From an uncultured Methanosarcinales archaeon (GTDB lineage Archaea; Nanobdellota; Nanobdellia; Woesearchaeales; CAXGTL01), in contig CAZHVK010000009.1 of NCBI GenBank assembly GCA_964535955.1, positions 1-64,000 of the forward strand: a DNA stretch of 64,000 nt. The letters are read 5' to 3'. Of the stretch, positions 7,923-57,836 are shown in pieces (the first letter of the stretch is position 1; the number at the start of each line of letters is the position of its first letter). The translations under genes and the position numbers were made by a program. The notes under the pieces were generated by a model, which saw nothing but the letters and a program-made list of their open reading frames with translations, ran no database searches and was not told the DNA's origin.

Positions 7923-8098
7923 GGCTTCATCCAAAATATCCGTCTGTGATGTCAGAAACCATAGGTTTCTGAGCATGCTCAGAAATGCTTTGCATTTCTG
8001 ACACATCGATGCCTGAGATGCCATAGGCATTGATGGCATGGCCAGATGAAGCTTTTGAGCATAGCGAAAAAGCGGAATAGGATTTTTTGGATGGAGCA
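7923..8098 (+). mobile_element. MITE-like family A copy 1, carrying a double-hairpin module
   Basis: Ends GGCTTCATCCAAAA / TTTTGGATGGAGCA; flanks CCTTTTCCC / CCTTTTTCC; homologous to 24043 and 34325 copies. Confidence 0.75.
7950..8003. repeat. 54-bp TGTCA...TGACA double-hairpin module
   Basis: TCAGAAACC-ATA-GGTTTCTGA, GCATGC, TCAGAAATGC-TTT-GCATTTCTGA. Confidence 0.9.
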
Positions 8099-26569: not shown

Positions 26570-26623
26570 TGTCAGAATCATACAATGATTCTGATCATGC
26601 TCAGAAACCTTTGGTTTCTGACA
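26570..26623. repeat. 54-bp double-hairpin module outside families A and B
   Basis: TCAGAATCAT-ACA-ATGATTCTGA, TCATGC, TCAGAAACC-TTT-GGTTTCTGA. Confidence 0.9.
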
Positions 26624-34324: not shown

Positions 34325-34503
34325 ATGTCCATCCAAAAATCCTACTACGTTTCACCTCACTCCGCTCAGTGAAACTTCGTCTGGCCATGCCATCAATTTC
34401 TTCGAAATTAATGACATTGATGTGTCAGAAATGTATATCATTTCTGAGCATGCTCAGAAACCTATGGTTTCTGACATCACAGACGGATATTTTGGATAGG
34501 CTT
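34325..34503 (-). mobile_element. MITE-like family A copy 3 (inverted, eroded ends), carrying the module
   Basis: Reverse complement aligns with copy 1; module at 34423..34476. Confidence 0.75.
34423..34476. repeat. 54-bp double-hairpin module
   Basis: TCAGAAATG-TATAT-CATTTCTGA, GCATGC, TCAGAAACC-TAT-GGTTTCTGA. Confidence 0.9.
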
Positions 34504-53201: not shown

Positions 53202-53382
53202 AGCTTTGTAGAAAACCTGTCGTTTCCAACCATTTTCTGCCGTTGCGAGGGCTCATCACTATTAAGCCCGAGCAGGCAGGGTGTCAAGAATCAGAGATTC
53301 TTGATCATGCTCAGAAATTTGTGAACCAACAAATTTCTGACACAACGGCGAGGTAAAGCCGAGTAAGGTTTTCTACAGAGTA
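53202..53382 (+). mobile_element. MITE family B copy 2, carrying a double-hairpin module
   Basis: Ends AGCTTTGTAGAAAACC / GGTTTTCTACAGAGTA; 8-bp flanking repeat CATAAACC; aligns with reverse complement of 42692..42812. Confidence 0.85.
53282..53342. repeat. 61-bp double-hairpin module
   Basis: TCAAGAATC-AGA-GATTCTTGA, TCATGC, TCAGAAATTTG-TGAACCAA-CAAATTTCTGA. Confidence 0.85.
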
Positions 53383-57287: not shown

Positions 57288-57384
57288 TTTTAATATCCTC
57301 CTATTATATCTTAAGTTATATCCAAGAAACCATTGCCATTATTAAAAACCTCTTATATTCAAACCAAGATAATCCCGAAAAGAA

Positions 57385-57537
57385 TGGGTCTGGCCGGACT
57401 TTCATCTTTACAGATCTTGAACCGGCGACCATCTCGATTTTAAAAACAACTGCGTTGTTTTGAAGTTTCAACACAGTTGAAACAGTCAACGAGATGTCAT
57501 TTATGGTGTAACAACATAGCCACTAGACCACAGACCC
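57385..57537 (-). tRNA. tRNA-Val(GAC) with D-loop (57501-57517), anticodon-loop (within 57438-57484) and T-loop (57399-57415) introns
   Basis: GGGTCTG/CAGACCC, TCTCG/CGAGA, GCCGG/CCGGC stems; BHB helices GTGG/CCAT, TTGA/TTAA, TTCA/TGAA. Confidence 0.88.
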
Positions 57538-57539
57538 AA

Positions 57540-57836
57540 TCATTTACTAAGGTCAGTTATATGCAATCTTTCATCAACAAACTCAACTTTAACTTCTTTT
57601 AAATCATTAAACAAAAGATCATTTCCCCAAGGCAGAAACTTAGCAACCTTAAAATTTTTTAAATAACAACTTAATGCTCTAAACTCTAATATCTTGAAAG
57701 GCATCTTTATTGTCTTATGAGGGTTATTTATCTTAAAAAACTTTACTTGTGTATTATAAGGATACATTTCATGTTCTTCTTTATTATAATTCTTAATTCT
57801 TGATACTAACATTGATTTTGCTTTATATTTTGTCAT
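57540..57836 (-). CDS. Hypothetical protein
   Basis: GGGGTG SD; stop 3 nt before tRNA-Val. Confidence 0.65.
   Translation of the reverse strand: MTKYKAKSMLVSRIKNYNKEEHEMYPYNTQVKFFKINNPHKTIKMPFKILEFRALSCYLKNFKVAKFLPWGNDLLFNDLKEVKVEFVDERLHITDLSK

Follow-up and report, generated by a model that had tools for sequence, protein, structure and literature searches.

The window analysed here, a stretch of 64,000 nucleotides from the start of contig CAZHVK010000009.1 (assembly GCA_964535955.1), carries a gene for tRNA-Val(GAC) on its minus strand at 57385..57537. The pre-tRNA body is 153 nt long, with the discriminator A at 57385 and no encoded CCA. In the minus-strand reading, from 57537 down to 57385, its stems are GGGTCTG/CAGACCC (acceptor), GTCT/TGAC (D), TCTCG/CGAGA (anticodon) and GCCGG/CCGGC around TTCAA (T), and the stretch contains every part of a class I tRNA. 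These parts are distributed over four exons. Exon 1 (57518..57537) holds the 5' strand of the acceptor stem, nucleotides 8-9, the 5' strand of the D stem and the D-loop up to nucleotide 20, and is followed by a non-canonical D-loop intron of 17 nt inserted after linear nucleotide 20 (intron 1, 57501..57517). Exon 2 (57484..57500) runs from A21 to U37 and comprises the 3' strand of the D stem, nucleotide 26, the 5' strand of the anticodon stem and the loop nucleotides U32 U33 G34 A35 C36 U37. Intron 2 (57438..57483) is 46 nt long and occupies the canonical 37/38 position. Exon 3 (57416..57437) supplies U38, the 3' strand of the anticodon stem, the variable loop TGGTC, the 5' strand of the T stem and the T-loop to nucleotide 59, while exon 4 (57385..57398) supplies U60, the 3' strands of the T and acceptor stems and the discriminator; between them lies intron 3, a non-canonical T-loop intron of 17 nt at 59/60 (57399..57415). 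Archaeal terminators are runs of T, and the T-rich run TTCTTTT at 57378..57384, immediately 3' of the discriminator on the same strand, is a likely transcription stop.

Each of the three introns is bounded by a BHB motif. We scanned the 153 nt exhaustively for a 4-bp helix with two 3-nt bulges, each cut after its second nucleotide, which is the cut-site geometry familiar from the literature. In the D-loop intron the central helix is GTGG/CCAT and the bulges are CT-A and AA-A (the hyphen marks the cut), with an outer helix of 2 bp and an inner helix of 3 bp. The anticodon intron combines the central helix TTGA/TTAA with bulges CT-G and AA-T; its outer helix, of 7 bp, is the anticodon stem, and its inner helix counts 0, with no pair directly past the 5' bulge and an 11-bp inner helix resuming only after a 3x3 U.U loop. 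The T-loop intron, for which the T stem serves as an outer helix of 5 bp, has the central helix TTCA/TGAA, bulges AG-A and AG-T, and an inner helix of 3 bp. All four central pairs and both 3-nt bulges are thus present in all three introns, and some of the flanking helices are short. Motifs with a 4-bp helix number in the dozens in this AT-rich sequence, so that such a motif alone is cheap; those seated on the tRNA's own stems are three and no more. The scan agrees with an earlier note on this DNA in placing BHB introns of 17 nt in the D loop (57517-57501) and the T loop (57415-57399). For the anticodon insert, to which the same note gave a length of 46-47 nt, a canonical 37/38 intron is indeed present and its length is 46 nt, not 47.

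Joined in silico, the four exons yield a 73-nt molecule that ARAGORN reads as tRNA-Val(gac) with a full, restored cloverleaf and a 7-nt anticodon loop, and a refined solver, which also rewards G18G19, picks the same three introns. Neither ARAGORN nor Rfam at its gathering score reports a tRNA in the window, as is expected of a gene that is triply interrupted. Contigs of four DNA runs, which come from other samples in the same two studies, have an identical gene wherever they cover it. A contig of run X7 matches window positions 57416-57539 at the gene's two ends only, with 72 other letters between them; a related organism from the same water probably contributed this Val tRNA gene. On the upstream side, a 98-aa ORF on the minus strand (57540-57836) ends in a stop codon that lies 2 nt ahead of the tRNA's first base; this ORF either contains the tRNA promoter, is spurious, or is co-transcribed with the tRNA, and CATATAAC at 57563-57556 could be a TATA box.

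The remainder of the genome places this architecture in context. With its intron option, ARAGORN makes 11 tRNAs visible, and Rfam RF00005 gives 10 above its cut-off. As marker genes put the completeness of the genome at 100%, most of its tRNA genes must be multiply interrupted. One such gene encodes tRNA-Ile(GAT) on contig C2 (37985-38121, minus strand), where the solver places introns after nucleotide 20 (17 nt), at 37/38 (16 nt) and at 59/60 (29 nt), the same three positions as in tRNA-Val(GAC). A motif scan with the solver did not reveal a second Val(GAC) gene in this genome. Multi-intron tRNA genes are routine for this lineage, and the tRNA-Val(GAC) gene is an ordinary one of its sort.

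For comparison across relatives, the gene was searched by BLAST, first against 40 relatives and next against 400 genomes from its order, with matches in 107 of 401 genomes, the window genome (G000) included; this tally counts six unpublished genomes, which are absent from the fetched loci. A further 110 places were fetched, and the resulting 121 loci gave 108 tRNA solutions with a script combining BHB motifs and the cloverleaf. The Val(GAC) orthologue set used below comprises 52 genes with a score of at least 23 and, having been gathered by BLAST similarity to the 5' end of the query, is not a random sample of the order. The D-loop intron site is common to the orthologues L002 (19 nt), L005 (18 nt) and L007 (39 nt), and many orthologues in the order have an intron at 59/60, among them L004 (30 nt), L012 (55 nt) and L005 (25 nt). 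Within one genus the D-loop intron spans 17 to 39 nt at the same site (L007 from genome G001, L009 from G002), and the Val(TAC) gene of G002 has D-loop, anticodon and T-loop inserts too.

The long anticodon intron also has relatives. Homologous introns of 46 nt, 74-77% identical, lie at the same site in genomes G016 (L004) and G310 (L012) and in the metagenome contig L257, and G338 (L013) has a 40-nt relative. A tighter anticodon-arm pattern applied to metagenome contigs matched two loci: L257, a new homologue, and L258, which matches L004 letter for letter across the anticodon arm and its flanks. A looser pattern, which allowed a gap of 36-56 nt and was applied to genome contigs, matched at least 120 stretches, nearly all of them chance bacterial matches, and searching the families of G016 and G310 brought up no additional intron of 46 nt. 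The distribution of lengths is patchy: 46 nt in G000, G016 and G310, and 16-17 nt (G001-3), 33 nt (G216) or 14 nt (G344) in their nearest relatives.

A purine at position 37 is the general rule, and the canonical cut at 37/38 leaves U37. Among the 52 Val(GAC) genes, nucleotide 37 is U in 29, G in 15 and A in eight. Of the 29 U37 genes, 19, from 13 families, lack an anticodon-loop intron, so in these 19 genes U37 is written directly in an uninterrupted anticodon loop. With the intron option off, ARAGORN on its own finds 30 Val(gac) genes in the same loci, 18 with U37, eight with G37 and four with A37. Closer to the window genome, the same-genus orthologues of G001-G003 contain canonical introns of 16-17 nt, with helices TTGA/TCAG or TTGA/TCAA, and all leave U37. 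Outside the order, a sample of other orders of the class gave seven Val(gac) genes, six with G37 and one with U37. As encoded, U37 is the commonest state of tRNA-Val(GAC) across the order. To judge from these genes, it is likely that tRNA-Val(GAC) of this DPANN order normally works with U37, the state of more than half of the sampled genes in at least 13 families, and that a second group uses C33 together with A37. All eight A37 genes have C33 in place of the near-universal U33 (anticodon loop TCGACAY; L015, L018, L038, L042, L045, L052, L086 and L109), and no gene with U33 among the 52 has A37. Four intron-less genes of the C33/A37 type are also called by ARAGORN, and one further Val(GAC) gene, L106, has C33 with G37.

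The 46-nt intron can be folded in two ways. The two perfect hairpins that the earlier note described in the insert do exist: they span 57443-57483, each has an 8-bp stem and a 3-nt loop, and 3 nt separate them. Hairpin 1 (57465..57483, minus strand) has the stem GTTTCAAC/GTTGAAAC, and hairpin 2 (57443..57461, minus strand) the stem AAAACAAC/GTTGTTTT, the last U of which overlaps the BHB central helix. Each hairpin core, its loop included, is nearly the reverse complement of the other, which makes possible a long inner helix instead (57447..57479, minus strand), in which 57479-57469 pairs with 57457-57447 over 11 bp above the 3x3 U.U internal loop. With the BHB kept, the long helix folds at -17.0 kcal/mol vs -13.3 for the two hairpins. 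In the four 46-nt sequences, 92.7% of the cells are paired in the two-hairpin fold and 89.1% in the long helix. Changes on both sides of a pair number 5 of 24 in the two-hairpin fold, four of them in hairpin 1 (4 of 8 pairs there, 1 of 7 counted in hairpin 2), and 3 of 23 in the long helix; the covariation score was reached by 1 of 500 shuffles for the two hairpins and by 23 of 500 for the long helix. This comparison covers four related sequences, two of them close, and does not choose between the folds. Both folds leave the BHB intact, so that the choice between them does not affect the EndA cut sites. A pseudoknot joining the outer pairs of hairpin 1 with the long helix was considered and rejected, as its 1-nt linker would be unable to cross an 11-bp helix. 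The 46-nt intron, inspected by eye, shows no apparent C or D box of a guide RNA.

Double hairpins are also a feature of the genome at large. A dispersed repeat family of 46-59 nt has the form TCAGAAAT..ATTTCTGA, with a 6-nt spacer and TCA[GT]AAA..TTT[CA]TGA, and the bases of its inner stem vary between copies yet stay paired. Copies lie in the window at 7952-8001, 26572-26621, 34425-34474 and 53284-53340, with about 30 more elsewhere in the genome. A regular expression recovered 37 copies, and a profile built from these gave 135 nhmmer hits on both strands (E<=10, --max). Like the intron, the repeat places two perfect hairpins side by side, with stems of 8-10 bp and short loops. The intron differs from it in lacking sequence similarity, in having a spacer of 3 rather than 6 nt, in being single-copy, in lying inside a BHB intron and in being orthologous across families.

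Taken together, these data make it very probable that in this locus a small AT-rich DPANN archaeon has a functional gene for tRNA-Val(GAC), with three introns and U37 and with neither a fourth intron nor a 1-nt exon. The primary transcript would contain three independent, non-overlapping BHB introns, after nucleotide 20, at 37/38 and at 59/60, each folding locally into a 4-bp helix with two 3-nt bulges, seated on stems of the tRNA itself. EndA, the only tRNA-splicing endonuclease detected in the genome, would cut each bulge and RtcB would join the exons, with no particular order of removal required, and the mature anticodon loop would read UUGACUU, with U37. That standard finders miss the gene might instead suggest a decaying pseudogene, its inserts being junk and not spliced introns. 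We regard this as very unlikely, for the four stems are intact, the three inserts are exact BHB motifs whose removal gives a perfect cloverleaf, the intron positions are common to orthologues, other samples in these studies gave contigs with identical DNA, and the genome yielded no other Val(GAC) gene to the motif scan. The earlier note had left the choice between three and four introns undecided, and here only the three are upheld. Its fourth intron implied ordered splicing: 33 nt (57484-57452) would leave first and join A57451 as a 1-nt exon at position 37, after which a 13-nt 37/38 intron would be removed to leave the loop UUGACAU. A helix GTTG/CAAC with 3-nt bulges is present at 57484-57452, as this model needs, and the model would give position 37 the purine of the general rule. 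PMC7668247, in the part available to us, describes the state so avoided, a pyrimidine at 37, as 'very unusual' for archaea. ARAGORN accepts both 73-nt products, with U37 and with A37, as Val(gac), so the cloverleaf cannot decide between the models. The first-step motif, by contrast, is as weak as the note itself had suspected: its 4-bp helix is flanked by a single outer pair and lacks an inner one, the BHB scan filtered the motif out, and it takes up G31 of the anticodon stem, breaking the G31-C39 pair. Given the dozens of 4-bp-helix motifs in these 153 nt, it is no more than chance gives. When it is enforced, the best fold of the anticodon arm has an energy of -4.6 kcal/mol vs -17.0 with the canonical BHB, some 12 kcal/mol worse. 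The comparison of orthologous introns that the note called for bears on the same model: the 16-17-nt introns of the congeners leave U37 and contain no internal A to rescue. The fourth intron was proposed solely to avoid U37, on the premise that U37 is unacceptable, and that premise fails against 29 of 52 Val(GAC) genes of the order, 19 of which have no anticodon-loop intron and encode U37 directly, and against the lack of A37 in any solved Val(GAC) gene having U33. Since this tRNA normally has U37 in the lineage, neither a fourth intron nor a 1-nt exon is needed, and ordered splicing around A57451 can be given only the slightest credence.

An independent question is the origin of the 46-nt intron within the three-intron gene. 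The earlier note had raised the alternative that the insert is another double-hairpin element seated in an intron, which would make the two hairpins a DNA-level mobile element that recently entered an older, short 37/38 intron and is not ancestral. In its favour, the genome is full of double-hairpin repeats of about 50 nt, and the long intron is patchy among close relatives. The hairpins exist, as noted; they are, however, not a copy of the genome's repeat. None of the 135 hits of the repeat profile overlaps 57385-57537, the stems differ, and the spacers are of different length. The search for other copies of the hairpin pair was likewise unproductive, blastn-short recovering in full only the 46-nt intron itself; its best other match, of 18 nt at C6:11990-12007 (E 6e-4), has surroundings without hairpins and was treated as chance. 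A recent insertion is further at odds with the 46-nt homologues that three other genomes or contigs contain at this site, with their compensatory changes in hairpin 1, and with the 40-nt relative in G338, which retains hairpin 2. We therefore consider a mobile origin improbable, though the patchy distribution of the long form leaves it a small share of credence vs an ancestral intron that has been repeatedly shortened. The 46-nt intron would instead be old and vertically shared, its interior adopting either two 8-bp hairpins or one 11-bp helix, and, more speculatively, it may have been conserved for a function of the excised circle in one of these two forms.

Several aspects of this gene recall better-known systems. 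Three-intron tRNA genes are described for the Crenarchaeota and intron transposition for the Thermoproteales in the accessible portion of PMC4090602. The multi-intron tRNA genes of these archaea resemble the Val gene in combining BHB introns at 37/38 with others in the D-loop and T-loop, in their removal by EndA and in being invisible to standard finders. The host of the Val gene, unlike the Crenarchaeota, has a small AT-rich DPANN genome with one alpha-type EndA gene detected rather than an (alpha-beta)2 enzyme. The 59/60 T-loop position is shared with disrupted tRNA genes of DPANN archaea (PMC5829648, as far as its text was available). With regard to U37, the portions of the literature at hand yielded only tRNA-Ala of Methanocaldococcus jannaschii and an ascidian mitochondrial tRNA-Met as cases of U37 or a pyrimidine at 37. 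Like tRNA-Val(GAC) here, the M. jannaschii tRNA-Ala(GGC) has a pyrimidine 3' of the anticodon and reads codons starting with G (36 = C), according to the available text of PMC7668247. The two differ in that U37 of tRNA-Ala(GGC) was measured in one tRNA, whereas that of tRNA-Val(GAC) is deduced from genes, 29 of 52 across an order.

For annotation, it matters that standard tools miss the only Val(GAC) gene found in this genome, which adds one more case in which a DPANN tRNA set looks incomplete from multiple introns and not from missing genes. The analysis also removes a tempting but wrong claim of novelty, namely a 1-nt exon with ordered splicing. The U37 trait is a mildly notable by-product that may interest tRNA specialists. 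Should U37 persist in the mature tRNAs, the order would be the first large clade with an elongator tRNA lacking the near-universal purine 37, and a natural system for testing what purine 37 is needed for.

The genome encodes the enzymes that the proposed splicing would require. The EndA gene (C2:172902-173543) specifies 214 aa with both the N and C Pfam domains and scores 116 bits against TIGR00324 (cut-off 59.6); RtcB lies at C7:17570-18859 (544.7 bits). The closest solved relatives of EndA are the catalytic alpha subunit of N. equitans (3IEY_A) and the homotetramer of M. jannaschii (1A79). It is a single-unit protein nearest to N. equitans alpha and M. jannaschii alpha4, and in this it differs from the three-unit epsilon2 EndA of ARMAN-2. 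A tblastn search of the genome with the EndA protein (E<=10) gave only weak hits for a second subunit, among which C7:67488-67712 (E 7.4) was rejected, as its frame, of at least 467 aa and open at both ends, is far too long; the genome may nevertheless hold a very divergent beta subunit. Since the D-loop BHB is flanked by 2 outer pairs and 3 inner ones and the anticodon BHB lacks an inner pair, a single alpha-type EndA would need a broad specificity. The part of PMC5829648 available reports alpha4-type EndAs bearing an L3 loop from several DPANN lineages and ties them to more tRNA gene disruption, a pattern that the single EndA here may fit. The protein also has a Lys/Glu-rich N-terminal extension of about 45 aa, and its gene adjoins, in divergent orientation, that of RNase Z (C2:171947-173543; locus L259, 189-1788), so that two tRNA-processing enzymes lie side by side.
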